Of a stretch of 51,590 nucleotides of DNA, positions 4,237 to 49,437 are shown in pieces. Positions within the stretch are counted from its first letter, which is position 1; each line of letters opens with the position of its first letter. Both the position numbers and the translations under genes were made by a program. The stretch comes from a virus (Duplodnaviria > Caudoviricetes), in the IMG/VR virus record IMGVR_UViG_3300044822_000051, positions 1-51,590 of that record. One strand, given 5' to 3'. The notes beneath the pieces were generated by a model, which did no database searches, was not told the DNA's origin, and saw only the letters and a list, made by a program, of their open reading frames with translations.

Positions 4237-4262
4237 TTTTCAGCCTCTTGGTAGGCGTGGGG

Positions 4263-4306
4263 TTGACGGGAGGCGGACCTTACGCCAGACTGACGCCCCC
4301 GTCAAC
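4263..4306. promoter_or_regulatory. Overlapping divergent sigma70 promoters with TGAC-N6-GTCA operator
   Basis: Rightward TTGACG-17-CAGACT; leftward TTGACG-17-TAAGGT; ACTGACGCCCCCGTCAAC at 4289-4306. Confidence 0.7.
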
Positions 4307-4320
4307 TGTGGAGATGGGAC

Positions 4321-4542
4321 ATGAAAGTCCAGCGCTACGTCGTGTTGCACGAGCCTCGCCAAAATTGGGCATGGGTAGTCACTGATCACGGCGGCCCGTC
4401 AGTTGCCAGATGTAAAACAGAGAAAGAAGCCGAACGCGTAGCCGACGCTCTCAATCTGGCACGTCGCGTAGCCGCTTTCAAAGCGCCGGGCGTTCATTGG
4501 TTCGAGAGCCTTCAGGATGATGCGAGAGAGCTACTTAAATAA
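4321..4542 (+). CDS. Hypothetical protein
   Basis: GGAG RBS; TAATG coupling to the helicase. Confidence 0.75.
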   Translation: MKVQRYVVLHEPRQNWAWVVTDHGGPSVARCKTEKEAERVADALNLARRVAAFKAPGVHWFESLQDDARELLK

Positions 4543-6248: not shown

Positions 6249-6343
6249 GCAGTCAAGTCAGGTGCAACGGGTGCGGGAAACTATCGCCCATCGTGGCGCC
6301 CTGTTGCCCGCACTGCGCGGTAGCACGTAAGGGCGGCCTATGA
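6245..6343 (+). CDS. 32-aa Zn-ribbon microprotein
   Basis: MSSQVRCNGCGKLSPIVAPCCPHCAVARKGGL; GAGG RBS; ATGA overlaps at both ends. Confidence 0.6.
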   Translation: MSSQVRCNGCGKLSPIVAPCCPHCAVARKGGL

Positions 6344-6831
6344 CTCTCATAGAGTGGGCTGAGAAATGGCGCATCCCTGATGCCGCCATTGCCGAGCTGT
6401 GCCGTTCTACGCTCCATGAGGGGCCGCGCGAGCCTGGTGACAAAGAGGGTGTTGTACAGTCTGATATTCGTTTGAAGGCTGGGCGCACGTCTCTGCTACC
6501 GTGGGGACAGCACACGTACTTGTATCGGAATAACCGGGGGGCCGGCAAACTCACAAACGGCTCATACGTGCGTTGGGGCTTGGCGAATGATTCGGAACGG
6601 CTTGGCGCATCGGTTAAATCAGCCGATTTGATCGGATGGGAGCAGGTGCGCATTACGCAAGAGCACGTGGGCTCAGTCATTGCCCGGTTTCTCTCCATCG
6701 AAGTCAAACGGCGCAATTGGAAGTTTGCGGCATCTTTGGAGGAGTGTGCACAAGTGCATTGGGCGTCTGTTGTGAACGCCCAGGGCGGCCGGGCCGTTAT
6801 TACCAACACTGACGGGAGTGTGTCAACATGA
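6340..6831 (+). CDS. VRR-NUC nuclease / Holliday junction resolvase
   Basis: RNNRGA, VRWGL, SADLIG, FLSIEVK, GGRA. Confidence 0.88.
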   Translation: MTLIEWAEKWRIPDAAIAELCRSTLHEGPREPGDKEGVVQSDIRLKAGRTSLLPWGQHTYLYRNNRGAGKLTNGSYVRWGLANDSERLGASVKSADLIGWEQVRITQEHVGSVIARFLSIEVKRRNWKFAASLEECAQVHWASVVNAQGGRAVITNTDGSVST

Positions 6832-7145
6832 GTTTTAAGTGGATAATACTAAACACCATTTTAATAGCAGGTTTGGTGTGCGGCTTGGATTACGCCGCAT
6901 GGGAATTGGGTAAAACCGTTTCCAAACCAAATCATTCGGCCGTGCTCGCAAGCGATGCTAGCGGGCAATGCGAAAAACCTGACGGTCGCGGTGAATACAA
7001 CGTAAAGGCTAACTCAGGCTGCGACGCCAAGTTATCGGAGGTGGAGGGGTTTCTCATGAAAAACGGCACCGTGTGCGTCGTTCCAAGTACCCAAAAAGCC
7101 GGCGACTACGGGAATTGGCACTGTTACATCAAGGCGGCGTTGTGA
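6828..7145 (+). CDS. Hypothetical protein with N-terminal membrane anchor
   Basis: Hydrophobic N-terminus; translationally coupled. Confidence 0.7.
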   Translation: MSFKWIILNTILIAGLVCGLDYAAWELGKTVSKPNHSAVLASDASGQCEKPDGRGEYNVKANSGCDAKLSEVEGFLMKNGTVCVVPSTQKAGDYGNWHCYIKAAL

Positions 7146-7360
7146 GCGATTTTCACATTGAGGTTATATGCCACGTCGATCCACCAAAGGATAAACCTTG
7201 GATGCGGCCAAAGCCGGAAACCGTGTGGGTTGGTATCGTGCCTTGGATACCGCGCATGGGTGATACCGTGGCGTGGAATGACTGCGGCTATGACAGAGCT
7301 GTTAAATACGTCTGCTACGATTTAGACAACCGAAAGGTAACCGTGGAGTTAGAGCCATGA
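7142..7360 (+). CDS. Hypothetical protein
   Basis: GTGA/ATGA coupling to neighbours. Confidence 0.65.
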   Translation: MSDFHIEVICHVDPPKDKPWMRPKPETVWVGIVPWIPRMGDTVAWNDCGYDRAVKYVCYDLDNRKVTVELEP

Positions 7361-7620
7361 AAATCCTGAAGCAAGGCGAGCCGGCCAAGCTGTACGGCTG
7401 CTGCACTAGGTGCAGGACTGTGGTGGAGACTGATGCGAGGGAGGCAACCAAGGACGGTCCGAGTCAATACATGGTGAAGTGCCCAACATGCGGCACGTAT
7501 TTCCCCGTGTGGGGGCAGGCGGTGCACGTTGATGGTGTTAGGTATCCCCCCGCAAAGCCTGAACCGACGACCACGCGCCTCTGCGGCGCTGGCTTGACAC
7601 TCCCGTCAGTTAAGTCTTAG
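7357..7620 (+). CDS. Zn-finger hypothetical protein
   Basis: CTRC and CPTC pairs. Confidence 0.7.
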   Translation: MKILKQGEPAKLYGCCTRCRTVVETDAREATKDGPSQYMVKCPTCGTYFPVWGQAVHVDGVRYPPAKPEPTTTRLCGAGLTLPSVKS

Positions 7621-10720: not shown

Positions 10721-10805
10721 TGGTGGACTAGCCTGGATTCGAACCAGGGAACCCGAAGGACCAGATTTACAGTCTGGCGGCTTTATCCATCTCACCAACT
10801 AGCCC
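10721..10805 (-). tRNA. tRNA-Tyr(GTA)
   Basis: GGGCTAG acceptor, CCAGA-CTGTAAA-TCTGG anticodon arm, long variable arm, GGTTCGAATCC, ACCA end. Confidence 0.93.
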
Positions 10806-10812
10806 AAACTGA

Positions 10813-10886
10813 CTGGGGGCGGCTGGGCTCGAACCAGCGACAAGCGGCGTAACAGGCCGCTGCTCTACCAACTGAGCTACATCCCA
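10813..10886 (-). tRNA. tRNA-Asn(GTT), imperfect acceptor stem
   Basis: TAGCTCAGTTGGTAGAGC D-arm, GCGGC-CTGTTAC-GCCGC, GCTGG-TTCGAGC-CCAGC; acceptor has mismatch/bulge and is followed by TCA rather than CCA. Confidence 0.8.
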
Positions 10887-11006
10887 AAAACCTTAAATTG
10901 AGCCAGACACTGCCGGTCCGAATAAGCCTATCGTTTGTGCGACATACCAGAGCCAGCTCATGGACGGGCCTACGACAGTGTCTGGGTCACCATGGACGGT
11001 ACAGAC

Positions 11007-11418: not shown

Positions 11419-11724
11419 TCAACGCAGGTTGATCACAACGCCTGACACGGTGCCATAGCCGTGCGAATTGGCGCGGATTACGGTGCCATCCATCTGGCGG
11501 AAAACCAACCCATTGCTCGGACGCAGCGTGCACGCTTCAATCTGGCGCATGCGGCGCGCACGCTCTTGGGCGCCATTGGGTGTATACGCCTTGCGCGGCA
11601 TCATCCATCGTGGGATTTGTGCCTCACTGCCTCCTCCCGTTAGCACGCGGAATGACGAGCCAAATGATGCCAGTATCGCAGCCAGCGTAGCCCACTGCGA
11701 CCTGTGTACGTTCCCGAATTTCAT
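11419..11724 (-). CDS. Hypothetical protein
   Basis: AACTGGAGA RBS and a promoter directly upstream. Confidence 0.75.
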   Translation of the reverse strand: MKFGNVHRSQWATLAAILASFGSSFRVLTGGGSEAQIPRWMMPRKAYTPNGAQERARRMRQIEACTLRPSNGLVFRQMDGTVIRANSHGYGTVSGVVINLR

Positions 11725-30454: not shown

Positions 30455-30852
30455 ATTTACACGGTACTGTACGTGGCGCGATTACCTCAGTGAACCCTGA
30501 TAAGCCAGTGCAGTGGCTTGCGTCCGCGGGTCCTAGTGTTGCGCCGGGCGGCAAACAGACAGCTACCTTCGCTGCCGCCGTTACTTTGCAAGGTCAGATC
30601 CAAGCGGCTCCTACTTCGATGTTGAAGCGGTATAATCTCCTGTCAGGCAATGAGATTTATCGCACGGTGTATTTCTACGGCCAGCGTCAGGCGATCAATC
30701 GCGCGGCCCAGCTTGGCGGGGATTTGTTGCAGTTCCCTGAAGTTCCTAACGGAACTACCCGCACGTGGCTGATTATCAAAGTGCCCGAGCAATGGCCCGA
30801 CTGGTGTTGTGTATTGTGCGTTATGCAATTGGACCCGAATAACCCGCCATGA
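30451..30852 (+). CDS. Head-closure protein
   Basis: MNLHG.VRGAI..VNP, GQIQA, GGDLL.F, WL...V.EQWPDWC. Confidence 0.75.
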   Translation: MNLHGTVRGAITSVNPDKPVQWLASAGPSVAPGGKQTATFAAAVTLQGQIQAAPTSMLKRYNLLSGNEIYRTVYFYGQRQAINRAAQLGGDLLQFPEVPNGTTRTWLIIKVPEQWPDWCCVLCVMQLDPNNPP

Positions 30853-31385
30853 GCTACTCTGTCAGTATCACACTTCAGAATGTGTATGAAGTGGTGCAAC
30901 CGCTGGTCATGGCGGTGACCGGGCTCGGGCAGAGTTTGGTGATACAGGACGCGCCGAATCGCAGCGCTATGCCGCCGGCATCGCCCGGATTCGTGGTCAT
31001 GCAGCTCACGCGGCAAAAACGCCTGCGCACGAATGTGGACACGACTCCGCCGGGTGCGAATCCTACCACTCAGTCGATTGAACAAGGGACGGAGCTTACG
31101 CTGCAGTTGGATTGTTATGGCGCCAGCTCAGGCGACTGGGCACAGATGTTGTCCGCGATCCTACGTGACGAACAGGGCTGCAATGCGCTAGAGCCCACGT
31201 GTGACCCACTTTATTGCGACGACCCCATGTGGGCGCCATTGGATGATTCAGAGCTGCAGTACGAGCAACATTGGATGCTATTTGCGAAACTGCAGTACAA
31301 TCCGATAACCACGGTGGGCCAGCAGTACGCCGACATCGTGGATTTTACACCGGTCAGCGTCAATCAGAAATTTCCTCCGGGTTGA
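30849..31385 (+). CDS. Tail terminator / neck protein
   Basis: NR..MP, RLRTN, QLDCYG, PLYCDDP, QYE..W...LQYNP. Confidence 0.75.
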   Translation: MSYSVSITLQNVYEVVQPLVMAVTGLGQSLVIQDAPNRSAMPPASPGFVVMQLTRQKRLRTNVDTTPPGANPTTQSIEQGTELTLQLDCYGASSGDWAQMLSAILRDEQGCNALEPTCDPLYCDDPMWAPLDDSELQYEQHWMLFAKLQYNPITTVGQQYADIVDFTPVSVNQKFPPG

Positions 31386-31638
31386 CCGGTGGGACGCCCG
31401 CGCACGATTTGAACTCGGGCGGCTTGTCGCACAGTTTCTTAAACTCCTTCCGATGTTGTTCTACAGTCTGCCATTCGCGCCAAATCACGTGAATGACTTG
31501 GCGTTCATCGTCACAGCATTCGGTGAGCTGTGCCGCGAGTGACCAAACCATGTCCATAAGCGCGGCCTTGCTCAATTTCCCCAGTTCCCCGGTATGTTTG
31601 TAAGGGACCAAGGCGGGCGGAATATTTTTAAGATGCAT
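31360..31638 (-). CDS. Hypothetical moron protein
   Basis: AGGA RBS; part of an antisense cassette. Confidence 0.65.
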   Translation of the reverse strand: MHLKNIPPALVPYKHTGELGKLSKAALMDMVWSLAAQLTECCDDERQVIHVIWREWQTVEQHRKEFKKLCDKPPEFKSCAGVPPVNPEEISD

Positions 31639-31686: not shown

Positions 31687-32145
31687 TCAGCGAACGGTCC
31701 CGCCTTGGTTGTACAATCGCACGAATGCCAGCGCAAGGGTGCGCCTGTATTCGGTCCGCGCCGATGCGCTAACGCGGTCGTACTCGGCCCATGCGGCGGC
31801 GCGAACGCGGTCAAACTCGGCCTGTGCGGCGGCGCAAACGCGGTCGTACTCAGCCAGCGCCGGTGCGCGAACGCGGTTGTACTCAGCCAGCGCCGATGCG
31901 TAAACGCGGTCGTACTCGGCCCATGCGGCGGCGCAAACGCGGTCGTACTCAGCCAGCGCCGGTGCGCAAACGCGGTCGTACTCAGCCCGCGCGGTTAGGG
32001 GGAGAAGCTCACCGACCCAACTCCGACGGAACTTATCGACTACCTTTAGGGCGACTTCCTCGGTGACTTCCACAGAGTCGCCAAACAGCGCGCGTTGGCC
32101 TTCGCATGCGCCGGCATCAATTAATTGTTGCAGTGTTAGTTTCAC
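31687..32145 (-). CDS. Protein with 11-aa tandem repeats (AEYDRVCAPAL/AAAW)
   Basis: AGGAG RBS; about seven 33-nt repeats at 31747-31987. Confidence 0.85.
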   Translation of the reverse strand: MKLTLQQLIDAGACEGQRALFGDSVEVTEEVALKVVDKFRRSWVGELLPLTARAEYDRVCAPALAEYDRVCAAAWAEYDRVYASALAEYNRVRAPALAEYDRVCAAAQAEFDRVRAAAWAEYDRVSASARTEYRRTLALAFVRLYNQGGTVR

Positions 32146-32267: not shown

Positions 32268-32531
32268 TTAGGTCAGATCGTATCCGGTGATAGTCCACTC
32301 AAGGTCGCTCAAGTCCTCAACCCCCTCCAGATCGGCGGCCGACTGGTAGTAGTACGCGGTCAACACAGCATCGCCGTTATCCGAAATTGACGCTGAGTAT
32401 TCCACGCTATCGTCACCATCAGTCTGCAGGCGACCCGTGGGCGCGCAGTTGACGCTATCCAGCATGTTTACCAGCTCGGCGCCAATCGCCTGAATTGCCT
32501 GCTCGCGAGTCATTATGCCTTTGGTGCTCAT
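32268..32531 (-). CDS. Small acidic hypothetical protein
   Basis: AACTGGAGA RBS; first gene after an operator promoter. Confidence 0.8.
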   Translation of the reverse strand: MSTKGIMTREQAIQAIGAELVNMLDSVNCAPTGRLQTDGDDSVEYSASISDNGDAVLTAYYYQSAADLEGVEDLSDLEWTITGYDLT

Positions 32532-32558
32532 TGTCGTGTCTCTCCAGTTGGTGAGCCC

Positions 32559-32587
32559 AGTATACTGACGGCGCCGTCAGTTTGCAA
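32559..32587 (-). promoter_or_regulatory. Operator-spacer promoter (consensus copy)
   Basis: TTGCAA-ACTGACGGCGCCGTCAG-TATACT. Confidence 0.85.
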
Positions 32588-32662
32588 GCTCTAATTGGCA
32601 TTTAACATAATCCCGTGCAATACTCTGGCGAGCATTAACCCTCGCTGGGGACTATTACGCAC

Positions 32663-34291
32663 ATGCGCTTACGACTTTTTGCCGCCCTGGCGCTCGCCTT
32701 GTTTGCAACCGCCGGCCACGCGCAACAGCTCATCAATTGCGCTACCGCCACCCCTTGCGCTAACAACGGCCCCACGAATACCGGCACCGGCGACCAGCTT
32801 CCTACCGCCGGCACCAAGATAAACGCGAATTTTCTGGCGCTGCCTAGTGAGCTGTTTAACGGGTTACCTTTGACGGTGGCTCATGGCGGCACGGGCACCG
32901 CGAGTCCCACCGTCACGCAAGGCTCGGGTATCACAATTACGGGCACGTGGCCCAATCTGACCATTAGCGCCACGGGTGGCAGTACGCCTCCGTCACCGGC
33001 TTACGGCACGATTTACAACAACAACGGCTCCTACGGCAGTCTCCTTCCGGGGTCAACTGGCGTGTATTGTCTCAATTGGGGCAGTTTAACCGCGGCGCCC
33101 ACCTTGACGACTTCGTGCGGCGGCTCGGGTGGCGCAGGGTTCGCGGCCATCACCAGCGGCACGAATACGACGGCGACCATGACCGTGGGATCTGGCGGCA
33201 CGGTCACCTATGCCGGCTCGGGCGTAGTCAATGCCAATGAGATAGCTGGGCTAGTCTGGCCAAGTTTGGTCAACGGCGACTGTCTCACCAATAACGGGAC
33301 TGCTCTTTCGTGGGGCGCATGTGGCTCGGGTTCGAACGCGTTTAGCAGCCTCACTAGCGGCACCAATACAGCCATGGCGGCACTGTGCGGCACTGGCTGC
33401 AGTATCGGCGCTACAGGCTCGGGAACGATTACGGCGACCGCTGCGCCCGTGGCCGGCATTACCGGGTTTGGCACCGGCATTGAGACGTTCCTCGCCACTC
33501 CGAGCAGTGCCAACCTGCTGAGCGCACTGACGACCAAAACCGGCACCGGCGTGGCCGTATTCGGCACATCGCCCACGCTGACCACTCCCGCCCTGGCCGG
33601 CTCGTCCACGGGTACCACGACTTTCGCCAGTGCGAACGCCAGCGCTACGAACTACACCATCACATTCCCGGCCGCGACGGGCACGTTGCCGTACTGGGCC
33701 ACTACCCCGGTCAGCGGCGACTGTCTGCAGTATTCCGGCACTGCGGGACTCGTGGTCTCTGTGGCGTGCTCGGGCGGCGCAGTCTCCAGTGTCACCGCCG
33801 GCACATCAGGATCCGTGTCCGCATCGCCCACCACGGGCGCGGTTGTAGTCGATTTGGCGAGTCAATCGGCGGGCACCATGTGCGCCAATTTGACCGGTTC
33901 GGCGGGCGCTCCCACATGCGGCAATACAATGGCGTCGTTACAATCCGCATTGACTGCGGCAAACGCGCTAGAAGTCTCGGCTACTTTGTCGAGTGGCGCG
34001 ACCAACAATTACTCGCCTACCGGCTACGGCACCACTACGGCGATTCTGAATTTGACGCCCGCCTCGGGGGGCTCATCACTGACGGGACTTGCGGCCGGTT
34101 CGGCGATGCAACAGATTTTCATCATTAACGCCGAGGCTGCGGGCGGCACGGATAACATTACGCTTACCAATCAATCCAGCAGCTCTACCGCGGCGAATCG
34201 GTTCTTAGCTTCCGGAAACCTTGTAATTCCCCCAGGTGGTGGAGTGCAGTGTCTTTACCGGTCATCGGTTTCTTACTGGTGGTGTCACTAA
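32663..34291 (+). CDS. Signal-peptide-bearing fibre-like protein
   Basis: MRLRLFAALALALFATAGHA signal; GTGD.L.TAG.KINANF virion-anchor motif; Thr/Gly/Ser-rich; 14 Cys. Confidence 0.8.
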   Translation: MRLRLFAALALALFATAGHAQQLINCATATPCANNGPTNTGTGDQLPTAGTKINANFLALPSELFNGLPLTVAHGGTGTASPTVTQGSGITITGTWPNLTISATGGSTPPSPAYGTIYNNNGSYGSLLPGSTGVYCLNWGSLTAAPTLTTSCGGSGGAGFAAITSGTNTTATMTVGSGGTVTYAGSGVVNANEIAGLVWPSLVNGDCLTNNGTALSWGACGSGSNAFSSLTSGTNTAMAALCGTGCSIGATGSGTITATAAPVAGITGFGTGIETFLATPSSANLLSALTTKTGTGVAVFGTSPTLTTPALAGSSTGTTTFASANASATNYTITFPAATGTLPYWATTPVSGDCLQYSGTAGLVVSVACSGGAVSSVTAGTSGSVSASPTTGAVVVDLASQSAGTMCANLTGSAGAPTCGNTMASLQSALTAANALEVSATLSSGATNNYSPTGYGTTTAILNLTPASGGSSLTGLAAGSAMQQIFIINAEAAGGTDNITLTNQSSSSTAANRFLASGNLVIPPGGGVQCLYRSSVSYWWCH

Positions 34292-34292
34292 A

Positions 34293-35738
34293 ATGAGCCG
34301 TATTTTAGCTCTGCTCGCCGCTCTCGTATTTGCCGCCAGTGCGGCCGGTTCGGGTTTGGTTCCGCTGGGCGGCAGTACGTCTAGTAGCGGCGGGAGCGGG
34401 TTTACTCCGCAGACAGGGTTTGCTTATTCGGGCTCTACCGCATCAGGCGGCGTGATGACTATCACTAGCAGCAGCTCCGTGTTTGGTTCCAAGCCATACG
34501 GCGGCGGCCCCCCGTTGGTATGGGCGCCCATGACAACCGACATGAACGGATCCTCTTTGGGCCGTATCAGCGGGTCGGGCACCTGGTCAGTCGTAACCAA
34601 TCTAGTGTGGCAATCAGGCTGTGGTCCTACGGGCGCGGCGGGCTGCGCGTACGGCGGCACGACCAAGGGTGATGGTGTCATAGGTGGCCCCGGATCGGTC
34701 TATCAAGCGGTGGCCGCAGTTGACTTGAGTGAGTGGTCGGGCTGGGCGAGTCAAAATGCCGGTGCGGGCTATTACGTCAATGACCCAGGCCAGGGTTTCT
34801 ATATCTGGCGACAGGAGTATCATTCCGGCTTTGGCCATTTGGATGCTACATCATCCAACAGTTATAACAGTGTTGGTAATTACAATTACAAAAACATACG
34901 CTGGTTCAGCCTTTATAGCAGCGGGACGGCCGAGGGTTATCCCGACATTTACTACCCGACGCACAATCAGCGGTTCGCCGTCGATTCGTGCGAAACGCCT
35001 TATTGCTTCCCAGGTGTCCCGAATGGAGCGCCTACGCAGTACACCAATGCAACAACTACGGGGTCGCCTGACGTAAACGGCTCGGTTACCGTCCAACAGG
35101 CTTTTGATGGCATGACTTCAGGCAGTGGCGCATACAATAATTGGGTTACGGCCGAATTCGGACTGTTGACGAACACGTGCCTGAGCGGTGCAACCTGCTA
35201 TGCGAGCGGCGGTGCGCCCAATTCGCAATTTTCATATGTGGTAGTAGGCAAAAACAGTAACGCGCCCATTGAGACATGGCCGGTTAGTAACTATCAGAAC
35301 AGCAGCCCCGGCGTCGCTTGGATGTTCGTTGATAGCAGCTCACTGCAAACCAATGGGCACGGCACAATTATTCGCACGTTCGCACTCCAGGCCGTAGTTG
35401 ACGGTACGTCGGGTTGCCCGAGCTGCAGCGATTTGCCACTAAATGCGTACGTCAACTATGGGCCAACGTATGTAGACGACTGCCTGTGCCATGTGGTCGT
35501 ACAGGACACGTCAACCTACAACGCGGCTACGGCGCGTGAAATTCAAATTCCCAGCTCGTGGAGTTCAGGGTCTATAACCCTGACGCTTCGTGTTGGAGCA
35601 TTTTCGAATTTCCACGGTAAGTATTTGTTTGTCATCGATCCGTCTAATACGGCGCATTTGATCGGTAGCTTCACGACGCTGTTTGATGTGAAGGACGCCG
35701 TTAACGATGATTATTTTGACGTGAGGGAAGTCGCGTGA
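34293..35738 (+). CDS. Signal-peptide-bearing beta-rich (lectin/adhesin-like) protein
   Basis: MSRILALLAALVFAASAA signal; aromatic/Gly/Ser-rich; 10 Cys. Confidence 0.75.
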   Translation: MSRILALLAALVFAASAAGSGLVPLGGSTSSSGGSGFTPQTGFAYSGSTASGGVMTITSSSSVFGSKPYGGGPPLVWAPMTTDMNGSSLGRISGSGTWSVVTNLVWQSGCGPTGAAGCAYGGTTKGDGVIGGPGSVYQAVAAVDLSEWSGWASQNAGAGYYVNDPGQGFYIWRQEYHSGFGHLDATSSNSYNSVGNYNYKNIRWFSLYSSGTAEGYPDIYYPTHNQRFAVDSCETPYCFPGVPNGAPTQYTNATTTGSPDVNGSVTVQQAFDGMTSGSGAYNNWVTAEFGLLTNTCLSGATCYASGGAPNSQFSYVVVGKNSNAPIETWPVSNYQNSSPGVAWMFVDSSSLQTNGHGTIIRTFALQAVVDGTSGCPSCSDLPLNAYVNYGPTYVDDCLCHVVVQDTSTYNAATAREIQIPSSWSSGSITLTLRVGAFSNFHGKYLFVIDPSNTAHLIGSFTTLFDVKDAVNDDYFDVREVA

Positions 35739-36553
35739 GGCACTTTTTGCTGTACGTTGTCACGGCTTTCTTAGGGATTGTTGGGCTGCAGCCCAACGCA
35801 TTCGCCACCGCGTCTGTGCGTCAAGAATCCCATACGGCATGGACTGCCGCGGGAGCGACCACGGTTACTACACCCGCGTTTGGCTCGGCTGTGCTTACAG
35901 GCGACACTATAGAAACGTGGGTAATCTGCAGTTGCACCACGACGCCCACGGGTGTTACGGATTCTGGTAGTCAGACATATACTCTGCGCACGTCGGTGCA
36001 CGATAACAATACAGGCGTGACAATCTATCTATATACGCACGTCAATAATTCCAGTGCTACGGCGTTGACCGTCACGGCCACGTGGGGTGCTGCGGAAACA
36101 TACAACGGAATATGGGCGAAGGATATTACAGGCGTCTCATCTAGCCCGTACCAGACAGCCGGCGGTCAGTCGCAGGCTAACCCCGGTACTACTACGGGTT
36201 TGATTAGCAGCGGCAATGTGACGCCCACGGGCCAACCTGCCCTCATTTCATCTTTGTCCTGGGATTCTGCGGGTAATGCATCCAGCATAGTGGCCGGATC
36301 ACAGACTGCAGGCTCCAACGGCTGGCTGCTGAGCGGCGGCACGGCACCTACAGGGAGTTCGGGCTCTCAGCGTGTGACCAGCACGTCTGCCATTGCCATG
36401 ACGTACTCAAATAGTACGGACGGCGGTTCTGCTGACTTTGTCACAATGGCGGCTATTTATACTGAGGCTACCGCCACAGGATCGCCCAACCAACATATGC
36501 CGCTGACCGGCGTCGCAAAAGTTATTCGTCCGCAATTCAAGAAGGCTGCCTAA
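35735..36553 (+). CDS. Signal-peptide-bearing beta-rich protein
   Basis: MRHFLLYVVTAFLGIVGLQPNAFA signal; GTGA coupling. Confidence 0.75.
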   Translation: MRHFLLYVVTAFLGIVGLQPNAFATASVRQESHTAWTAAGATTVTTPAFGSAVLTGDTIETWVICSCTTTPTGVTDSGSQTYTLRTSVHDNNTGVTIYLYTHVNNSSATALTVTATWGAAETYNGIWAKDITGVSSSPYQTAGGQSQANPGTTTGLISSGNVTPTGQPALISSLSWDSAGNASSIVAGSQTAGSNGWLLSGGTAPTGSSGSQRVTSTSAIAMTYSNSTDGGSADFVTMAAIYTEATATGSPNQHMPLTGVAKVIRPQFKKAA

Positions 36554-36982
36554 ATGCGCTCCATTATGAAGTTTGTTGTCTGCACTGTCGCACTATTGGC
36601 GTGGGGCCTGTCGGGCGCGCAGTCTGTCTACAACCAGATCCCGTTTTCTACCAACAGCAAGGGTGTGCTGATAGCCCCCGCTACGCCGGCTGCGACTCAA
36701 GTTAAAGCTAGCGCGGGCACGCTGCTAAGTATCACATGCTTTAACCTGTTGGCTACGCCGGTGTACGTCAAGTTTTTCGATGCCACTTCGGTGACGTTGG
36801 GCACCACGAGTGCATCACTCGACTTGATGTGCCCTGGCAACACTGCCGGCACTGGCTTTGTGTTGGCTACACCGTTCACGTTCGCGACCGGCATTGAGGT
36901 GGCGGTAACGGGCGGCATTTCACTGACCGACAACACCTCAATTACGGCCAGCAGCGTGGTCATTAATTACACGTATCAGTAA
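36554..36982 (+). CDS. Signal-peptide-bearing small beta protein
   Basis: MKFVVCTVALLAWGLSGA signal; VKASAG.L....N....YVKFFD..F.TGI pattern. Confidence 0.75.
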   Translation: MRSIMKFVVCTVALLAWGLSGAQSVYNQIPFSTNSKGVLIAPATPAATQVKASAGTLLSITCFNLLATPVYVKFFDATSVTLGTTSASLDLMCPGNTAGTGFVLATPFTFATGIEVAVTGGISLTDNTSITASSVVINYTYQ

Positions 36983-37008: not shown

Positions 37009-38613
37009 ATGGGTATTACGTTCGATAACCCTAATATCACGTTTGACGAACTTATCACGTTCGATACGACGGGCCTGAGTACTGGAGTTCACATGGGCGG
37101 CGTTTCCGCAAAACGGTTTGTAAGTTCGATCCCTAGCGTATTAGCGGCCGGCGGTGCCGCGTTGGGAATGAACGCGATTATTCTTACCGCGAATACCGCG
37201 GTGCCGATTGGCGCTCTACTGAGATTCGGCAGTGCTACAGCGGTGGCCAATTTCTTCGGTAGCAGCTCGCTTGAAGCCGAACTTGCCGCAACCTATTTTG
37301 CAGGCTTCGTAGGCGCGACACAGATCCCCAGTGCGCTATATTTCGCTCAATACAACACGACGGCAGTGGCGGGATACTTGCGCGGTGCGGCTTTGACGGG
37401 TGTTACTCCCGCGTCGCTGCAATCGCTGTCGGGTACCATCACGTTAGTAATCGACGGCGTGTCTCACACCTCGGCCAATATCAACCTTGCCTCAGCGTCT
37501 AGCTTCTCTGCGGCGGCTGCGTTGATTCAGACGGGTATCCAAGCGGGCACGCCGTCCAGCACGGCAACGTGCTCATACGACTCCACGCGCAACGCATTCG
37601 TGATTACATCCAGTACTACAGGCGGCTCATCCGCCGTCGCATATCCCACTGTAGGAACCCTCGCGAACGGCTTGTTGCTGACTCAGGCGGCCGGTGCGGT
37701 GCTGTCGCCGGGAGCTGCAGCGGCTACCCCAAGCGGGCTCATGACGCCGCTGACTACGATTTCTCAGGACTGGGCAACATTCATGCTGTCCTTCGATCCT
37801 GATGGAGGCGCGGACGGCGGTCCGATCAAAGTGCAGTTCGCCGAGTGGAATGCCGGCCAAGGCGATTACTACGCATTCGTCGCGTGGGATGCCGCCACGT
37901 TGCCGTCAACTGAGTCGGACGATAGCTCGTGTTTCGCACAGGCAGTGTCCGCTCTAGACGGCACAATAGCGATTTGGAGCGCTACTCAAGGCGCCCAAAA
38001 TGCCGCGTTCGTATGCGGCTACGCGGCGTCAATCAACTTCCAATCTCCGGGCGGTAGAACCAATGCGGCGTATCGCGCGAGTCCCGCACTTACGCCTGAT
38101 GTCACTAGCGACACGATTTACGGGAATATCACTGCCAACGGGTATAATTGCTACGCGGATGTAGCGACCCGCACGCAGGCATTCCAATGGTTTCAGCCCG
38201 GCACTATCAGCGGCAGTTGGGACTTCATTGACTCCTATCTGAATCAGATTTACTGGAATTCGCAGTTCCAGACTGATTACGCGGTGTACCTGAGCAACAC
38301 CCCGAGCATTCCGTATAACCAGGAAGGTTATGCAGGCGTTCGCGGCGCCATCTCATCTGACATTACATCAATGGGATCCTTCGGGGCGTACGTGGCCGGC
38401 GGCAACCTGTCGGGCGCACAACAGGCGGAGATTAACGCGGCGTGCGGCGGCATAAACGCGGCGGCCACGGTTATCTCCCAAGGCTGGTATCAGTACGTGG
38501 CTGATCCAGGCCCCACGGTTCGAGCCGCGCGTGGGTCGCCAATCAACAAGTTTTTCTATTTCGACGGCGGCTCGGTGCAAATCATTGACATGTCGTCCAC
38601 GGATGTCCAATAA
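37009..38613 (+). CDS. Tail sheath protein (DUF3383); second start at 37093
   Basis: V...PSVLAAGG, V.NFFG..S.EA..A..YF.GF, P.ALYFAQYN, QDWATF, SIPYNQEGY, R.SP...F.Y.DGGSVQ. Confidence 0.92.
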   Translation: MGITFDNPNITFDELITFDTTGLSTGVHMGGVSAKRFVSSIPSVLAAGGAALGMNAIILTANTAVPIGALLRFGSATAVANFFGSSSLEAELAATYFAGFVGATQIPSALYFAQYNTTAVAGYLRGAALTGVTPASLQSLSGTITLVIDGVSHTSANINLASASSFSAAAALIQTGIQAGTPSSTATCSYDSTRNAFVITSSTTGGSSAVAYPTVGTLANGLLLTQAAGAVLSPGAAAATPSGLMTPLTTISQDWATFMLSFDPDGGADGGPIKVQFAEWNAGQGDYYAFVAWDAATLPSTESDDSSCFAQAVSALDGTIAIWSATQGAQNAAFVCGYAASINFQSPGGRTNAAYRASPALTPDVTSDTIYGNITANGYNCYADVATRTQAFQWFQPGTISGSWDFIDSYLNQIYWNSQFQTDYAVYLSNTPSIPYNQEGYAGVRGAISSDITSMGSFGAYVAGGNLSGAQQAEINAACGGINAAATVISQGWYQYVADPGPTVRAARGSPINKFFYFDGGSVQIIDMSSTDVQ

Positions 38614-43869: not shown

Positions 43870-45374
43870 ACGTTATCCTAGCTCAGATTCAGGCACTATT
43901 GAGCCAGTTGGGTTTTCCAACTGCGGGCACTACGAACGTGCCGCAAATTCAGTGGACAACTACAGGGCTGGTTATTCCGTCTGAGGCGGCGGTGCTTGCG
44001 GGCGTGTTGTTGGATTGGAACGCGGTAGCCAATAATAACTTTAACCCCGCATTCAACACGCCGCAAGGTACGCTGATTTCCGCGCAGGCTGCGGCTATTT
44101 CGAATTGCTACGCGCAGATAGCGCTGATTGTGGCCGGCATGGACCCGGATCAAAATTACGGGTTCATGCAGGACGTTATAGGCCGGATCTATTATCAGAA
44201 TCGCAGTCCCGGTACGCCCACGGTTGTGTCATGCGTGGTCAATGGGCTCAACGGAACCGCTGTCCCCTACAACACTCCGATAGCAGAAGATACGTCCGGT
44301 AATGAGTACGTGTGCCAGGTCTCGGGCGCGTCGATACCGATTTCAGGCAACATCACGTTGACATTCGCCAACACGGTAAACGGTCCGATAGCTTGCGCGG
44401 CGAATTCCATCAAGTTGATTCAGGCCATCACCGGTATTGACTCCATATCCAACCCGGCCGTAGGCATTCCGGGCACCCTCGTGGAGTCTAGCGAAGCGTT
44501 TGAGTTCCAGCGTGAGCAATCCGTGGGCTCAAATTCGCAGGGCCTTACCGCATCCATCCAAGGGCAGGTGATCGGATTGCCGGGGGTAATTGACTGTTAC
44601 ACGATCGACAACCCCTCAACATCGGCGGTGCTGGTAGGGTCTACCAATTTTTCAGTAGCCGCAAAATCGGTCTACGTGGGCGTTATTGGCGGCACAGCAA
44701 CAGCCATAGCTAAAGCCATTTGGACCAAGAAAAGTTTGGGCTGCGGTTACAATGGTAACACTACAATTACCGTTACCGATACCAGCGTATCTACGAATCC
44801 GACGTATTCGGTTAGTTTCAACAACAACGCCGAAAACCCGGTTACGTACAACCTAACTATAAACATCAAGACCAACACCCTCCTGCCGTCCACGATAGTG
44901 ACGGATGTGCAAGCCGCGGCAAGTGGCGCGTTTTTGGGCACACTACCCGGCACGCAGCGAATTCGCATCGGGTCCACGTTTACCCCGATATCCTCCATTG
45001 CGCCATCTGTTACGACGTGCGAGGGGCCGGACATACCGGTGCAGATAGAGTCAATTTACATCGGCTCGGCATTCTCAGGCCAAGGCACCCTGACGAACGG
45101 CTCCAACGTGTTGACCATCAGCACGGCCAGCTCCGGTACTCTAACTGCGGGCACACCTGTAAAAGATGCCGCAAGCGCGATCCCTGCAGGTGCGTATATT
45201 GTGCAACAGCTTACGGGCACGGTTGGCGGGGTAGGTACGTATCAATTATCCATGAATGCGACGGCTACGGAGAGCACTGAGGCTATAACCGGCACTGCGA
45301 CAGGCACCGCCGCTACGATTGGCATAGACCAGAGCCCCGTGCTGGGCACTGTGACAGTTAACCTCGTATCATGA
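43866..45374 (+). CDS. Baseplate J-like wedge protein
   Basis: TPQG.L, G.MQD.IGRIY..R, ES..AFE..R..SV, IAKAIWTKK..GC.YNGNT. Confidence 0.88.
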   Translation: MNVILAQIQALLSQLGFPTAGTTNVPQIQWTTTGLVIPSEAAVLAGVLLDWNAVANNNFNPAFNTPQGTLISAQAAAISNCYAQIALIVAGMDPDQNYGFMQDVIGRIYYQNRSPGTPTVVSCVVNGLNGTAVPYNTPIAEDTSGNEYVCQVSGASIPISGNITLTFANTVNGPIACAANSIKLIQAITGIDSISNPAVGIPGTLVESSEAFEFQREQSVGSNSQGLTASIQGQVIGLPGVIDCYTIDNPSTSAVLVGSTNFSVAAKSVYVGVIGGTATAIAKAIWTKKSLGCGYNGNTTITVTDTSVSTNPTYSVSFNNNAENPVTYNLTINIKTNTLLPSTIVTDVQAAASGAFLGTLPGTQRIRIGSTFTPISSIAPSVTTCEGPDIPVQIESIYIGSAFSGQGTLTNGSNVLTISTASSGTLTAGTPVKDAASAIPAGAYIVQQLTGTVGGVGTYQLSMNATATESTEAITGTATGTAATIGIDQSPVLGTVTVNLVS

Positions 45375-45958
45375 GCGCGTCGTTTCCAACATTTGACGTT
45401 GATCAAGTGAATATTTCGCAGTTCGCGAATTCGCCCAAAGTGTCCGCATTGATAAGCGATTTTAACGCATGGTTTGATACTTCACCAAACCTGCTGCAGT
45501 TTTATAACTTGGTTTGGAACATCCTAACGGCCAAAGGATTCGGGCTGGACATTTGGGGCCGCATTTTGGGCGTCACGCGCAACATAACATTGTCGGGCAC
45601 CGGTACCTATTTCGGGTTTGTGAACGACGGCGCCGGAGATTTCACGGGGTTCGGGCAAGCGCCGTTTTACAGCGGCGCGACAGATACGACAACATACACG
45701 TTATCCGATACTCAGTATTTACCCGTGCTGCTGGCGAAGGCATTGGCCAACATATCCGTATGCACGGCCCCGTTGTTGAATCAACTGCTAGCCATTCTTT
45801 TCGCAGGCTACGGCCCCGTGTGGACGCAAGACAACGGCAATATGTCCATGTCTTACGTATTCTCGTTTACCCCGACCAACGTGCAAGAGGCAATGGTCAC
45901 GCAGCTCGGCATTCTCCCACATCCGGACGGCGTAGCCGTTAACATCGTCATAGTTTGA
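45371..45958 (+). CDS. Baseplate wedge protein (DUF2612)
   Basis: ISQFANSP, VWNILTAKGFGLDIWGRILGV.R, KALANI, LP.P.GV. Confidence 0.88.
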   Translation: MSASFPTFDVDQVNISQFANSPKVSALISDFNAWFDTSPNLLQFYNLVWNILTAKGFGLDIWGRILGVTRNITLSGTGTYFGFVNDGAGDFTGFGQAPFYSGATDTTTYTLSDTQYLPVLLAKALANISVCTAPLLNQLLAILFAGYGPVWTQDNGNMSMSYVFSFTPTNVQEAMVTQLGILPHPDGVAVNIVIV

Positions 45959-45965
45959 GGCAATC

Positions 45966-46670
45966 ATGGCAGGCGCACCCGCACCCGTAGACATTTATCT
46001 CCCTTGGGCCGCTAGTGCTTCAAGCTCCTATGTTAATTCGCCCATGCCTGTGCCGTCGCAGTTGCCCGGTAGCCCTGGGCGCGCAAGTTACACGGATGGG
46101 TTTCCGCCTCAAACATTCGAATCAATTGTGTCAGGAGGAACGGGGCCTGACGGGCGCGATATGAACGGGGTGATAAAGGATATCACTACCAACATAGTCG
46201 CTTGGGGCGGCGGCCAGCGCCCACAGTTCAATTCCACGTTTGCCAGTGAGTACGGCGGTTACGCCGTGGGCGCTATTGTGGCAATGGCGAACGGTACTGG
46301 CGAATGGATCAATACTGTATCAGGCAACACAAACAACCCTGATACTGCTGCGGCGGCTACGTCTGGTTGGTTCGCGTTGACTCGATCCGGCCAAAATAGC
46401 ATATCTGTAACGGGCGCCAGCACCATATTAACGGCTGTTCAAGCGGCGTGTAACATACTGAGCCTGACTGGCTCTGTAGGCACTACGGTGCAATTGCCCC
46501 CATGGCCTGGAATGTGGCTTGTGTATAACAACATAACTGCCGGTTCCGTGGCGATAGAGTCAACTGGCTCCGGTTCGTTTTTATTACCCGTGGGTATATT
46601 TACCATAGTAATCGTATCTCAAGGCGGTAATTGTTACGGTACGCTGTCTCAGCCTTCCTTTAACACGTGA
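45966..46670 (+). CDS. Tail fibre protein (proximal)
   Basis: ASYTDGFPP.T...GG..P.G.DMNG, GGYAVGA, NTNNPD. Confidence 0.8.
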   Translation: MAGAPAPVDIYLPWAASASSSYVNSPMPVPSQLPGSPGRASYTDGFPPQTFESIVSGGTGPDGRDMNGVIKDITTNIVAWGGGQRPQFNSTFASEYGGYAVGAIVAMANGTGEWINTVSGNTNNPDTAAAATSGWFALTRSGQNSISVTGASTILTAVQAACNILSLTGSVGTTVQLPPWPGMWLVYNNITAGSVAIESTGSGSFLLPVGIFTIVIVSQGGNCYGTLSQPSFNT

Positions 46671-46673
46671 CGT

Positions 46674-47606
46674 ATGCCGTCTAATTTTTACGTCAATAGC
46701 GTTGATCTGGACAGCATTTTCGCGCCCATCCAGTCCGGTATGACGCCCACGGCGCCTACGGGGTACACGGTCAACGGCGCTGACTTAAATTCCCGCTACG
46801 CGCCGTTAACTTACGGTTCTGCCGCGGGTGTAACCAATTATAAAGTTAACAGTGCGGACCTAAACACGCTGTTCGCAGCCTTTGGCTCAACCAACATCGT
46901 TATTTTGGTTGGCCCCTCCAACGTATCTGGCTCGGCTGCGGCGGGCTCACCATCTGGCACAGTTACCAGCTCAATCCCTATGACGGTGTCTGTGTCCGGC
47001 GGCCATCCGCCCTACACATACACGTGGGTAGTTTCCGGGGGCGCAGTGGCTAATAGCCCGAATTCGCCTACCACTTTCATAAGCGCGACGGTCAATGCCA
47101 GCTCCACGCTCTCGGGAACGGCGTACTGCACTATATACGACTCTACCGGACGGTCTGTAAACACCAGTTCAGCAAGTTGGCTGTTGAGTAACACGTCGGT
47201 CAATGAGATGGTATTTAGCTTTAGGGCGCAAAATACCGGTGGAGCAATAGGTTATGGTAGCCCCACTTTTTACGGTTCTGGTAACCCGGCCACGCCTGAG
47301 CCCGTGGAGTCTGCAAGCGGTGGCCAGCAGCTCATTGGCCTAGTGTGGGAGCCAGTACCTAACGCGTCCGTGGGGAGTATTGTGCTCACCATGTATGCGT
47401 TAAATGGTGTTGAAATACCCGCATCGTTTGTAACGACGTTAACATTGCCCAACACATTTGGCGGTAGCACCATTACGTTGTCGGGCGCCAGTGCAGCCAT
47501 ATCCCGCAATCCCAACACGAACTATACCCAGTGGACTTGGGAAGGATATGCGCAATGCTTTGTATCGGGTACTACCTATAACGCAACTGTAGTTTACAGC
47601 CCATAG
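46674..47606 (+). CDS. Tail fibre / receptor-binding protein with Ig-like segment
   Basis: Three N-terminal Y.VN..DL...[FY]A repeats; SGG.PPYTYTW. Confidence 0.7.
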   Translation: MPSNFYVNSVDLDSIFAPIQSGMTPTAPTGYTVNGADLNSRYAPLTYGSAAGVTNYKVNSADLNTLFAAFGSTNIVILVGPSNVSGSAAAGSPSGTVTSSIPMTVSVSGGHPPYTYTWVVSGGAVANSPNSPTTFISATVNASSTLSGTAYCTIYDSTGRSVNTSSASWLLSNTSVNEMVFSFRAQNTGGAIGYGSPTFYGSGNPATPEPVESASGGQQLIGLVWEPVPNASVGSIVLTMYALNGVEIPASFVTTLTLPNTFGGSTITLSGASAAISRNPNTNYTQWTWEGYAQCFVSGTTYNATVVYSP

Positions 47607-47622
47607 GTATAGCGGGGATTAC

Positions 47623-47838
47623 ATGAGCCTTGATGAGACCAGCCGCATGATTGGCCAACTTGAAGCAAAGGTTGCGGATCTACAGAAACGCACGGTCAGC
47701 ATGGATTCAAAGTTAGATAGACTACTCGCTCGATCTGTGAAAACGCAGTTGTCTATAAAACATTGGACAATGTTGATAGCGGGCGGTTCCTTGGGTGGTG
47801 GCGGGATCACTCACCTATTGCGGAGATTGTTCGAATGA
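47623..47838 (+). CDS. Coiled-coil plus TM small protein (holin/antiholin candidate)
   Basis: IGQLEAKV..L coil with C-terminal hydrophobic segment; coupled to the endolysin. Confidence 0.6.
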   Translation: MSLDETSRMIGQLEAKVADLQKRTVSMDSKLDRLLARSVKTQLSIKHWTMLIAGGSLGGGGITHLLRRLFE

Positions 47839-48353
47839 CTCGTAATGAAGCCATTGCGCTAATGATCCGTCTGGAGGGTGGCTTCACCGATAATCCGAAA
47901 GATCCAGGCGGCGCGACAAAGTTTGGTATCACTCAGCGCACATTGGGCTATTGGCGGTCACTGATGACCGGCCCAGCCGATGTAAAAGATCTAACCATTG
48001 CGCAAGCCACCCGTATATATGAGCTGGTGGACTGGGCACAAATTCACGGTGATCAGCTCCCGGCCGCTCTCGCCGTGCTGGTGCTCAACAGCGCCGTTAA
48101 CCAAGGTGAGCCCACGGCTGTTCGGCTGCTTCAAGCCGCGCTGAAGTTGCCGCAGACGGGGGTGATGGGTGCACCGGAACTCGCGGCAATCGCCACGTGG
48201 CATTCCCCTTACATGCCCGAGCAGACGCTTGCCGAGGAGTATTGCGCCCAAGTTGCCGTGCGGTATGCCCATTTAGATAGCACTGAGGCGGTTTTCGAAT
48301 TGGGCTGGTTTCGGCGGCTAATGCGGGTGTATACTGCCGCAGTTAAAGCCTGA
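47835..48353 (+). CDS. Endolysin, glycoside hydrolase family 108
   Basis: EGGF.DNPKDPGGATKFGIT, AVNQG, LQ.AL, F..GW..R. Confidence 0.93.
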   Translation: MTRNEAIALMIRLEGGFTDNPKDPGGATKFGITQRTLGYWRSLMTGPADVKDLTIAQATRIYELVDWAQIHGDQLPAALAVLVLNSAVNQGEPTAVRLLQAALKLPQTGVMGAPELAAIATWHSPYMPEQTLAEEYCAQVAVRYAHLDSTEAVFELGWFRRLMRVYTAAVKA

Positions 48354-48864: not shown

Positions 48865-49437
48865 GTGATTCATTTCCTGCATGGGATTCGAACCGGCGCC
48901 CGCACCGAGGTAAAAGGGCTCATCCCCTACCTTATGGGCGCCGGTTTCGATGTAGCGTATCCCGACTACGGCTACGAATTGGAGCTTGAGACGCGCTTTG
49001 TCAACCCTATGATCGTGGGATCTATCCTCCCCTATATCAAGCCGGGTGACATCCTGGTAGGCCACAGCAACGGCTGTGCGCTCATTCTGGACCTATTGGA
49101 CGCAGGTGCGCCCGCTACCCGACTCGCACTCATCAACCCGGCCCTGGAAACGTGTCCAGTGTTCCCTGAGCGGATTATCGCCGTAGACGTGTATTTCAAC
49201 CCAGGCGATACGATCACCGAAGCTGCAGCCATTGCTGAGCGACTGGGCTGGGTTGACCACGTGTGGGGCGAAATGGGTCACGCGGGGTATCAAGGGAGTG
49301 ACCCACGCGTGGAGAATATCAATTGCGGACAGCAAACACTGCTTCCCAGCGTTCATGGGCATTCAGATATTTTCACGCCCGACAAACTTAAGGACTGGGG
49401 TCCTTATATTGCACATCGGCTGGCGGCACTTGTTTAG
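48865..49437 (+). CDS. Alpha/beta hydrolase (esterase/lipase-like)
   Basis: LHG oxyanion region, GHSNG nucleophile elbow, NPGD, GHSD. Confidence 0.85.
   Translation: MIHFLHGIRTGARTEVKGLIPYLMGAGFDVAYPDYGYELELETRFVNPMIVGSILPYIKPGDILVGHSNGCALILDLLDAGAPATRLALINPALETCPVFPERIIAVDVYFNPGDTITEAAAIAERLGWVDHVWGEMGHAGYQGSDPRVENINCGQQTLLPSVHGHSDIFTPDKLKDWGPYIAHRLAALV

Follow-up and report, generated by a model that had tools for sequence, protein, structure and literature searches.

Four consecutive plus-strand genes (g1 to g4, positions 32663-36982) in a myophage genome encode fibre-type and glycan-type proteins, each of which begins with a predicted Sec-type export signal and carries closely paired cysteines in its mature chain. 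The genome is the Caudoviricetes record IMGVR_UViG_3300044822_000051, a complete virus record with direct terminal repeats, and its full 51,590 bp are the window analysed here. The block is an accessory insert between the neck and tail sheath genes, and the set or parts of it recur in other phages. Its composition suggests a horizontally shuffled module drawn from phage receptor-binding hardware, comprising a fibre (g1), a glycan protein (g2), a partner (g3) and a jelly roll (g4), all of which appear to have been re-targeted to the cell envelope. Our tentative reading, to which we give a probability a little short of even, is that the block encodes an exported, disulfide-stabilised glycan module of the receptor-binding type, which would mature in the periplasm and act outside the cytoplasm after lysis.

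Anatomy and accessory status of the block

An earlier note on this DNA, made from its letters and open reading frames (ORFs), described four coupled genes with Sec-type leaders and with 14, 10, 2 and 2 cysteines in the mature chains, and this description holds. The first ORF, g1 (32663-34291), encodes a fibre-like protein of 542 residues with a signal at residues 1-20; g2 (34293-35738) encodes a concanavalin A (ConA)-like, lectin- or polysaccharide-lyase-like protein of 481 residues with a signal at about residues 1-19; g3 (35735-36553) encodes 272 residues from a GTG start preceded by the Shine-Dalgarno sequence GAGGGAAG; and g4 (36554-36982) encodes a jelly-roll protein of 142 residues with a signal at residues 1-22. 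All four products are predicted to be exported. The best start of g2 is the ATG at 34293, one base past the g1 stop, rather than the longer GTG start at 34236. The four genes are tightly spaced (1 nt between g1 and g2, a 4-nt overlap of g2 and g3, 0 nt between g3 and g4) and end 26 nt before the sheath gene.

A basic n-region opens each N-terminus and is followed by ten or more uncharged hydrophobic residues and then a small-x-small site, as in Sec type I signals with cleavage within about 15-30 residues. These calls combine direct reading of the sequence with a home-made heuristic, which is known to give false positives (it flagged the sheath protein of L072, a relative described below). It flags six of the 67 proxy genes in the window, four of them being the consecutive g1 to g4, and simple arithmetic on these counts gives p ~1.3e-3 for four adjacent genes when six are placed at random. 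The other two flagged ORFs are found at 6828-7145, in the early region, where the product looks like a small membrane protein, and at 11419-11724 on the minus strand.

Nearly all cysteines of the mature chains are closely paired. They form seven close pairs in g1 (26/32, 136/152, 207/220, 242/246, 354/369, 407/419 and 530/541), five in g2 and a CxC in g3, and g4 has three cysteines, one of which falls within the signal. Because export signals and paired cysteines occur together, the four proteins probably fold outside the cytoplasm, something unusual for proteins of this type in tailed phages. A lipoprotein reading was rejected, there being no cysteine at the cleavage sites and no lipobox, and no membrane anchor was found in g1 to g4 beyond the signals.

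The placement of the genes between neck and sheath was also right. The insert is bordered on its left by the tail/neck terminator gene (30849-31385, plus strand; PF23961, E=6.5e-20) and on its right by the tail sheath gene (37009-38613, plus strand; DUF3383, E=4.7e-102), and the block shares this gap with three minus-strand genes. It is an accessory insert, because the terminator homologue adjoins the sheath gene in all three relatives examined that lack it, while another relative has it. In phiE131, from the group of Burkholderia phages that are the closest named relatives by sheath (43% identity), the terminator homologue stops 4 nt ahead of the sheath gene, and the IMG/VR relatives L072 and L073, whose sheaths are 59% and 42% identical, have the two genes overlapping or 80 nt apart. 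The whole 5.6-kb content of the gap, three minus-strand genes and g1 to g4, is missing from these three phages. The block is present directly ahead of the sheath gene in L018, a metagenomic fragment with a 67% identical sheath, where the order is a g1-like gene, a gene of 325 residues with a Tat-like RRxFL leader, a signal-less gene of 231 residues, a signal-bearing g4-like gene and finally the sheath gene. The two middle genes have no detectable homology to g2 or g3. Such presence and absence between conserved flanks (absent from phiE131, L072 and L073, present in L018) is the pattern expected of a moron.

Recurrence of the set and co-variation of signals with cysteines

The earlier note had proposed a survey of co-occurrence in other phages, and the set or parts of it were found in L018 and on two further contigs, L032 and L019. 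L032 has a different phage backbone, with no sheath match within the stretch examined, and carries four consecutive signal-bearing genes, encoding a fibre-like protein tied to the g1 family via P0021 (E=1e-11), a g4-like protein, a CHB_HEX_C/Fn3_assoc protein and a g3-like protein (E=0.008). On L019, a phage-like contig, a short g1-like exported protein is followed by a signal-bearing protein of 1,168 residues (4009-7515), a glycoside hydrolase family 5 (GH5) cellulase with several immunoglobulin (Ig)-like domains, and then by another signal-bearing protein; the neighbour gene there is not homologous to g3. What these sets appear to have in common is a protein of the fibre type, a small jelly roll and a glycan-active member that changes from set to set, each of them predicted to be exported. 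In addition, g1-like and g4-like proteins were found on contigs of the same size five times (52295, 49901, 45694, 39527 and 8481 bp).

Locus scans used the smaller alignments A2 and A5, A1 and A4 being too diverse. Scans of genome contigs gave no relative with the g1 alignment and one small contig from a metagenome-assembled genome (MAG) with the g4 alignment, and a scan of viral contigs with g2 alone gave nothing. No match to g1 was obtained by tblastn against 50,697 phage records or by phmmer against PDB sequences at E<=1, and no family for g1 to g4 was found in Pfam, PHROGs or NCBIfam.

Among 8,000 candidates scored, 1,108 match g1 at E<=1e-3. Within the 120 g1 matches listed, the g1 C-terminal domain is present in 24, of which 22 bear a signal; the signal-less members are P0051 and P0104, the latter having a hydrophobic segment behind a probable mis-start. 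A further 23 of the 120 are signal-bearing, cysteine-rich and fibre-like with a different C-terminus, including one from a Terriglobia MAG, and the remaining 73 have neither the signal nor the g1 C-terminal domain. Median cysteine content among the listed matches is 1.73 per 100 residues in signal-bearing proteins (n=44, none without cysteine) versus 0.44 in signal-less ones (n=75; p=3e-17). For g4 there are 101 matches including g4 itself, and 76 of the 100 others bear a signal. The cysteine count is even and non-zero in every signal-bearing g4 homologue (76/76), and the signal-less homologues (n=24) have a median of 1.04 per 100 residues (p=1e-8); six long signal-less forms in the g4 alignment are without one or both of C62 and C93. 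Loops with extra cysteine pairs are present in g2 and in the signal-bearing P0222 and are missing in signal-less g2 relatives. The leader of the L018 protein at the g2 position has a similar Tat-like counterpart in the g2 homologue P0225. Signal-less phage relatives exist for all four proteins.

The export signals look selected, since they are kept in homologues, co-vary with cysteine pairs in the g1 and g4 families but not in the third family tested, that of g2, and have a Tat-type leader in their place at the g2 position of L018. This conservation, together with the co-variation in the g1 and g4 families, supports the earlier treatment of the leaders as real features. As far as homologue comparison can indicate, export followed by disulfide formation would be the reading that fits the leader and cysteine data best.

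Folds of the four proteins and the phage that carries them

An attachment-like motif right after the g1 signal had been noticed previously and related to T4 gp9 and gp10. The motif, GTGDQLPTAGTKINANF, is present at residues 41-57, within a gp9/10_N-like region at residues 38-103 (32774-32971). The relation to T4 is a weak one: PF07880 is the sole Pfam match to residues 21-120 taken alone (profile positions 10-68 of 175), but with E=0.038 and 14.5 bits it falls below the 25-bit gathering cut-off, and full-length g1 has no PF07880 match at E<=0.1. A word-based search with residues 21-80 returned only four close relatives and cannot show the breadth of the motif, and a regular-expression scan gave one signal-less phage ORF (L048) with an N-terminal KINSNF.

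The central repeat of g1 (about residues 258-344; 33434-33694) is a sequence module common to signal-less fibres with Peptidase_S74, Mtd_N and Gp53-like_C domains. Whereas virion fibres are signal-less proteins from fibre or baseplate loci, g1 bears a signal and its block lies between terminator and sheath. The C-terminal beta-sandwich of g1 (residues 425-542; 33935-34288; about 115 residues) contains the invariant pair C530/C541. In 15 aligned members of the family the C-terminal 110-170 residues are conserved and the N-terminal part varies, and the conserved part of the g1 family is thus the C-terminal domain, not the N-terminal attachment-like motif. Atlas look-alikes of this domain are viral, including clusters that combine T4_gp9_10_N with Phage_depo_C, Gp53-like_C and a tail-like trimerisation region. 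A type IX secretion system (T9SS) or other C-terminal sorting signal was rejected for g1, which has no such Pfam hit and no terminal hydrophobic stretch. Complex prediction of g1 (21-542) with g4 (23-142) scored 0.00, which is evidence neither way.

The earlier description of all four proteins as fibres or adhesins is borne out by the receptor-binding and fibre-type relatives of the block, although g2 resembles a lectin or lyase more than a fibre. The predicted g2 model (predicted local distance difference test, pLDDT, 78.5; predicted template modelling score, pTM, 0.83) has a ConA-like jelly-roll core at about residues 67-420 (34491-35552), the beta-jelly-roll fold of polysaccharide lyase families 14 and 20 (PL14 and PL20). 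Its fold matches are TtX122 (Z 13.3), a PL20 glucuronan lyase (2zzj, Z 13.2), Cip1 (Z 12.4) and PL14 alginate lyases (Z 11-12), with 5gmt (Z 11.9), 3a0n and 3gne (Z 11.2-11.4) among the PL14/PL20 matches and with Foldseek E of 4e-5 to 1e-3. Against PL20, PL14 and TtX122 the root-mean-square deviation is 3.6-4.2 Å over 203-223 residues at 9-12% identity. A C-terminal domain of about 80 residues (380-460; 35430-35672) is common to roughly a thousand proteins. A signal-less phage protein of 1,306 residues on contig L074 ends in a g2-like region and is followed by a weak signal-less g3 relative (E=0.005), and a PHROG scan of ten signal-less g2 relatives matched none of them.

Proteins at the g2 position (g2 at about residues 20-35, L018 1235-2212, L019 4009-7515 and P0222) have (L/I)xPLGGS or SLGGS after the leader and then a Ser/Gly-rich run. 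This GGS-type motif is present even where the rest is unrelated, and may serve as a linker or in sorting. For g3, only viral hypothetical look-alikes were found, and its weak relatives elsewhere, the L032 and L074 neighbours mentioned above, stand behind glycan-domain or g2-like genes.

The g4 model is a jelly roll (pLDDT 82) with the conserved pair C62/C93 inside the roll. Its best matches among solved structures are Ena1B (7a02, Z 8.3), a phage cement protein (Z 7.8), XepA (6i56, Z 7.6) and the Bd2133 tip (Z 6.6), and the XepA/YomS-type match (Z 7.6 for 6i56, 6.3 for 6i5o) is tied with many jelly rolls. An Ena-type pilus was rejected, as the mature N-terminal extension is without cysteine and both cysteines lie within the roll. 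At E<=1e-3, g4 matches 143 predicted viral structures, nearly all unnamed. Across 46 IMG/VR loci, the proteins with the g4 domain are mostly signal-less, 220-1100 residues long and carry it at their C-terminus, with signal-bearing forms only at L032 and L063. A PHROG scan of nine such fused proteins placed one (L036) in 'virion structural protein' and one in a family of unknown function, and a scan of six long signal-less g4 relatives matched none. Signal-less phage proteins of 220-1100 residues (L025-L070, such as L042 9224-10321 and L054 9548-10324) form a widespread family that starts with MADN..(D/N)PG.GG...ATD and ends in a g4-type jelly roll, and almost none of its members has a PHROG or Pfam name.

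The sole sequencing run listed for the window is a peat metagenome, which may be its source. The gene content indicates a myophage, with a portal, a Mu-F-like protein, a cement protein, the neck terminator, the DUF3383 sheath, an E217 gp32-type tube, a tape measure, a baseplate hub, DUF2612, a GH108 endolysin and an E217-type collar (below the Pfam cut-off). The phage also encodes a helicase, a primase-polymerase, a PD-(D/E)XK nuclease and a single-strand-binding protein, and a DNA polymerase A match is weak and below cut-off. No integrase or lysogeny gene was found among roughly 40 window ORFs scanned. The usual tail-fibre locus lies after the baseplate genes, at 45371-47606, separate from g1 to g4.

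The three minus-strand genes in the gap encode 92 (31360-31638), 152 (31687-32145) and 87 residues (32268-32531). They have no Pfam match at E<=0.01 and NCBIfam matches only far below cut-offs, and their only PHROG matches are two weak ones to families of unknown function, both from the 152-residue ORF. That ORF contains a tandem array (31758-31992) with a 33-bp unit in 7.1 copies (79% matches), which encodes AEYDRV-type repeats of 11 residues. Between these genes and g1 lies a divergent intergenic region of 131 bp (32532-32662) with sigma-70-like hexamer pairs facing both ways, at 32582-32611 and 32595-32624 on the plus strand and at 32587-32559 on the minus strand; such pairs are consensus matches only, with six found against 3.3 +/- 1.8 in shuffles. 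No terminator-like site was found in the 26 nt between g4 and the sheath gene.

Other observations concern the rest of the genome. Two adjacent tRNA genes, for Tyr(GTA) and Asn(GTT), lie at 10721-10887 on the minus strand, and Asn and Tyr are rather frequent in the predicted exported proteins. The sheath N-terminus (37009-37080; L018 3348-3420) has a threefold short repeat of the ITFD/VTFD type ahead of the DUF3383 part, which begins from about residue 35; the L072 sheath, with its start as called, does not show this repeat. Downstream of the endolysin (47763-48353) and an ORF of 119 residues, an ORF of 190 residues (48865-49437) has no Pfam or NCBIfam match.

Proposed function and comparison with known systems

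The four proteins are probably made along with the tail proteins, because their genes stand first in the run of tail genes, close up against the sheath gene. Each product would be exported by Sec and fold in the periplasm, where its cysteine pairs, to judge from sequence and from their co-variation with signals, would become disulfides, and the products may be retained in that compartment until they are released alongside virions at lysis. Their target beyond the cytoplasm could be a polysaccharide of the host envelope or matrix, which the proteins would bind and g2 possibly cleave. This would clear a path for progeny or keep progeny off cell debris, the proteins acting in free form and not as virion parts. 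This free module is the reading we favour because of the accessory status of the block, the separate tail-fibre locus, the glycan-type middle genes, the constant C-terminus and variable N-terminus of g1, and two precedents described below, XepA of PBSX and the signal-bearing carbohydrate-active enzymes of prophages.

Several points weigh against it. The signal heuristic is permissive, cysteine content does not differ between signal-bearing and signal-less homologues of g2 (1.03 versus 0.89, p=0.35), and the L018 gene at the g3 position has no signal. The best fold matches of g2 are only about 3 Z above generic legume lectins (Z ~10), so lyase activity is a guess from the model, and no match of g4 among solved structures is decisive (top Z 8.3, within the common range). 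To get to the cell surface ahead of lysis, a periplasmic protein would need an additional secretion step, and none was found; unattached receptor-binding proteins set free alongside progeny could also compete with the phage for receptors. The signal-less relatives, some of them probably virion-borne, and the weak gp9/10_N-like motif of g1 fit a virion role just as well.

Such a virion role, in which g1, joined by g2 to g4 in the part of a tip, enzyme or adaptor, would be exported, oxidised and trimerised in the periplasm and dock on particles at lysis as a disulfide-hardened accessory fibre, is in our judgement unlikely, although several points speak for it: the fibre build of g1, the weak T4_gp9_10_N-like motif that follows its signal (E=0.038), the repeats it has in common with S74-, Mtd_N- and Gp53-like_C-bearing fibres, and the look-alikes of its C-terminal domain in clusters that combine T4_gp9_10_N with Phage_depo_C. 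The occurrence of the g4 domain at the C-terminus of signal-less phage proteins of 220-1100 residues at about 40 IMG/VR loci, the L074 arrangement (a signal-less g2-like region within a 1306-residue protein, then a g3-like one) and the packing of the block against tail genes agree with it as well, and T4 tail fibres can join particles in lysates. The block is, however, missing in all three relatives with the same neck and tail, and therefore no conserved docking site is implied. Fibres anchored on virions show the opposite of the variable N-terminus and constant C-terminus seen in the g1 family, lysis would dilute the products and so hamper docking, and an ordinary tail-fibre locus is present in another part of the genome. 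The accepted view places both the folding and the assembly of tailed-phage receptor-binding proteins in the reducing cytoplasm, and a two-compartment route of virion assembly is, to our knowledge, not known for these phages. Full-text literature searches gave no case of exported tail fibres or of signal-bearing virion proteins. It is doubtful, by our estimate, that a group of uncultured soil and peat phages export a receptor-binding module by Sec or Tat, form its disulfides in the periplasm and join it to particles at lysis.

Residence in the envelope, with the proteins in the periplasm or outer membrane binding or trimming a receptor glycan during its synthesis and so blocking superinfection or the sticking of progeny to debris, is improbable. 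The predicted export, the receptor-binding type of the proteins and the lyase- or lectin-like g2 would suit this role; surface polysaccharides cross the periplasm, periplasmic lyases such as AlgL exist, and Llp of T5 masks its own receptor. Known exclusion proteins, however, are small and made early or by prophages, whereas here four proteins of 142-542 residues (~1,440 in total) are encoded in a block packed with tail genes. No integrase was seen among the ORFs scanned, the phage encodes its own helicase and primase-polymerase and has the weak, below-cut-off DNA polymerase A match, and the four proteins lack a lipobox and any membrane anchor beyond the signals.

Still harder to credit is display on the host surface, by which moron-type cargo with its own promoter would give the host an adhesive fibre or a matrix-modifying set. 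Points in its favour are the accessory nature of the insert, the sigma-70-like hexamers ahead of it, a weak alignment of g4 with the Bd2133 tip (Z 6.6) and, among the listed g1 matches, the 23 signal-bearing, cysteine-rich, fibre-like proteins without the g1 C-terminal domain, one of them from the Terriglobia MAG; the mosaic adhesive trimer (MAT) fibres of Bdellovibrio, as PMC10769870 describes them, are signal-bearing, tail-fibre-like surface trimers. Against it, the part retained in MATs is the N-terminal domain and that retained in the g1 family is the C-terminus, no terminator lies in the 26 nt after g4, and neither lysogeny genes (among the ORFs scanned) nor an outer-membrane translocation part was found. 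Masking and display are both less likely than the free module because of the packing with tail genes, the lack of visible lysogeny genes and the lack of an outer-membrane export part. That the proteins are not exported at all, their hydrophobic N-termini being untranslated or non-functional as signals and their cysteine pairs incidental, is very improbable despite the false positives of the heuristic and an in-frame TTG within the g1 h-region, given that the N-terminal segments are conserved at the protein level in distant homologues, that leaders co-vary with cysteine pairs, that the L018 protein at the g2 position has a Tat-type leader instead, that the four flagged genes stand in a row (p ~1.3e-3) and that a good Shine-Dalgarno precedes g3.

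If the free module is the correct reading, with oxidised glycan binders or cleavers released from the cell, it would represent a new class of phage accessory module, with consequences for our picture of how soil phages get past polysaccharide matrices and for the interpretation of carbohydrate genes encoded by viruses; docking on virions would instead represent a new assembly route. Under either reading, the co-variation of signals and cysteines provides a simple sequence rule for finding more modules, and proteins of the g1 to g4 type are candidates for stable, secretable glycan-binding tools.

Among known systems, fibres and depolymerases of the PF07880 type with a C-terminal beta-sandwich (PF25692, PF21882) resemble g1 in its central repeats, its weak PF07880 match and the look-alikes of its C-terminal domain. 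Canonical fibres are signal-less, have few cysteines, lie in fibre loci and assemble in the cytoplasm, and the PF07880 score of g1 is below cut-off. PL20 and PL14 lyases and TtX122 share the fold of g2 at about residues 67-420 (Z 11-13.3), but identity is only 9-12%, g2 has no Pfam hit and legume lectins follow close behind (Z ~10).

Lom and Bor of phage lambda are morons, accessory exported proteins encoded in phage late regions. The block resembles them, and also XepA of PBSX, in comprising accessory genes among virion or lysis genes whose products are predicted to leave the cytoplasm; PMC6834076 describes XepA as an exported late phage protein not found in particles. XepA is also a beta-sandwich protein, matching g4 at Z 7.6 in a tie with many others. 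The block differs from morons and XepA in its four coupled genes of receptor-binding or glycan type, its paired cysteines, its recurrence as a set, the lack of a closing terminator and the lack of any sign of lysogeny. Signal-bearing viral carbohydrate-active enzymes (CAZymes) provide a further likeness through the lyase- or lectin-like g2 and the GH5 cassette of L019, and SignalP signals are reported for 5% of prophage CAZymes (3261/64,678) in PMC13507307. There they are single genes read as metabolic cargo, whereas g2 travels with exported fibre-type partners beside tail genes.

Bdellovibrio MAT fibres are likewise signal-bearing and tail-fibre-like, with modular tips, as described in PMC10769870. 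The likeness extends to the order of Sec signal and then tail-fibre-like fibre, to the S74 chaperone type found in some g1 matches (P0010) and to the weak alignment of the g4 model with the Bd2133 tip. By the same description, MATs are encoded by cellular genes of a predator and keep a beta-rich N-terminal domain of ~130 residues while their C-terminal tips vary, whereas g1 is phage-borne and, across the 15 aligned members of its family, has the opposite pattern, which sets it apart from MATs as described. MAT fibres, morons with XepA, and signal-bearing CAZymes each share one trait with the block, not the whole set: here a complete set of receptor-binding type combines predicted export signals with cysteine pairs, and similar sets are found in at least two unrelated phage backbones.

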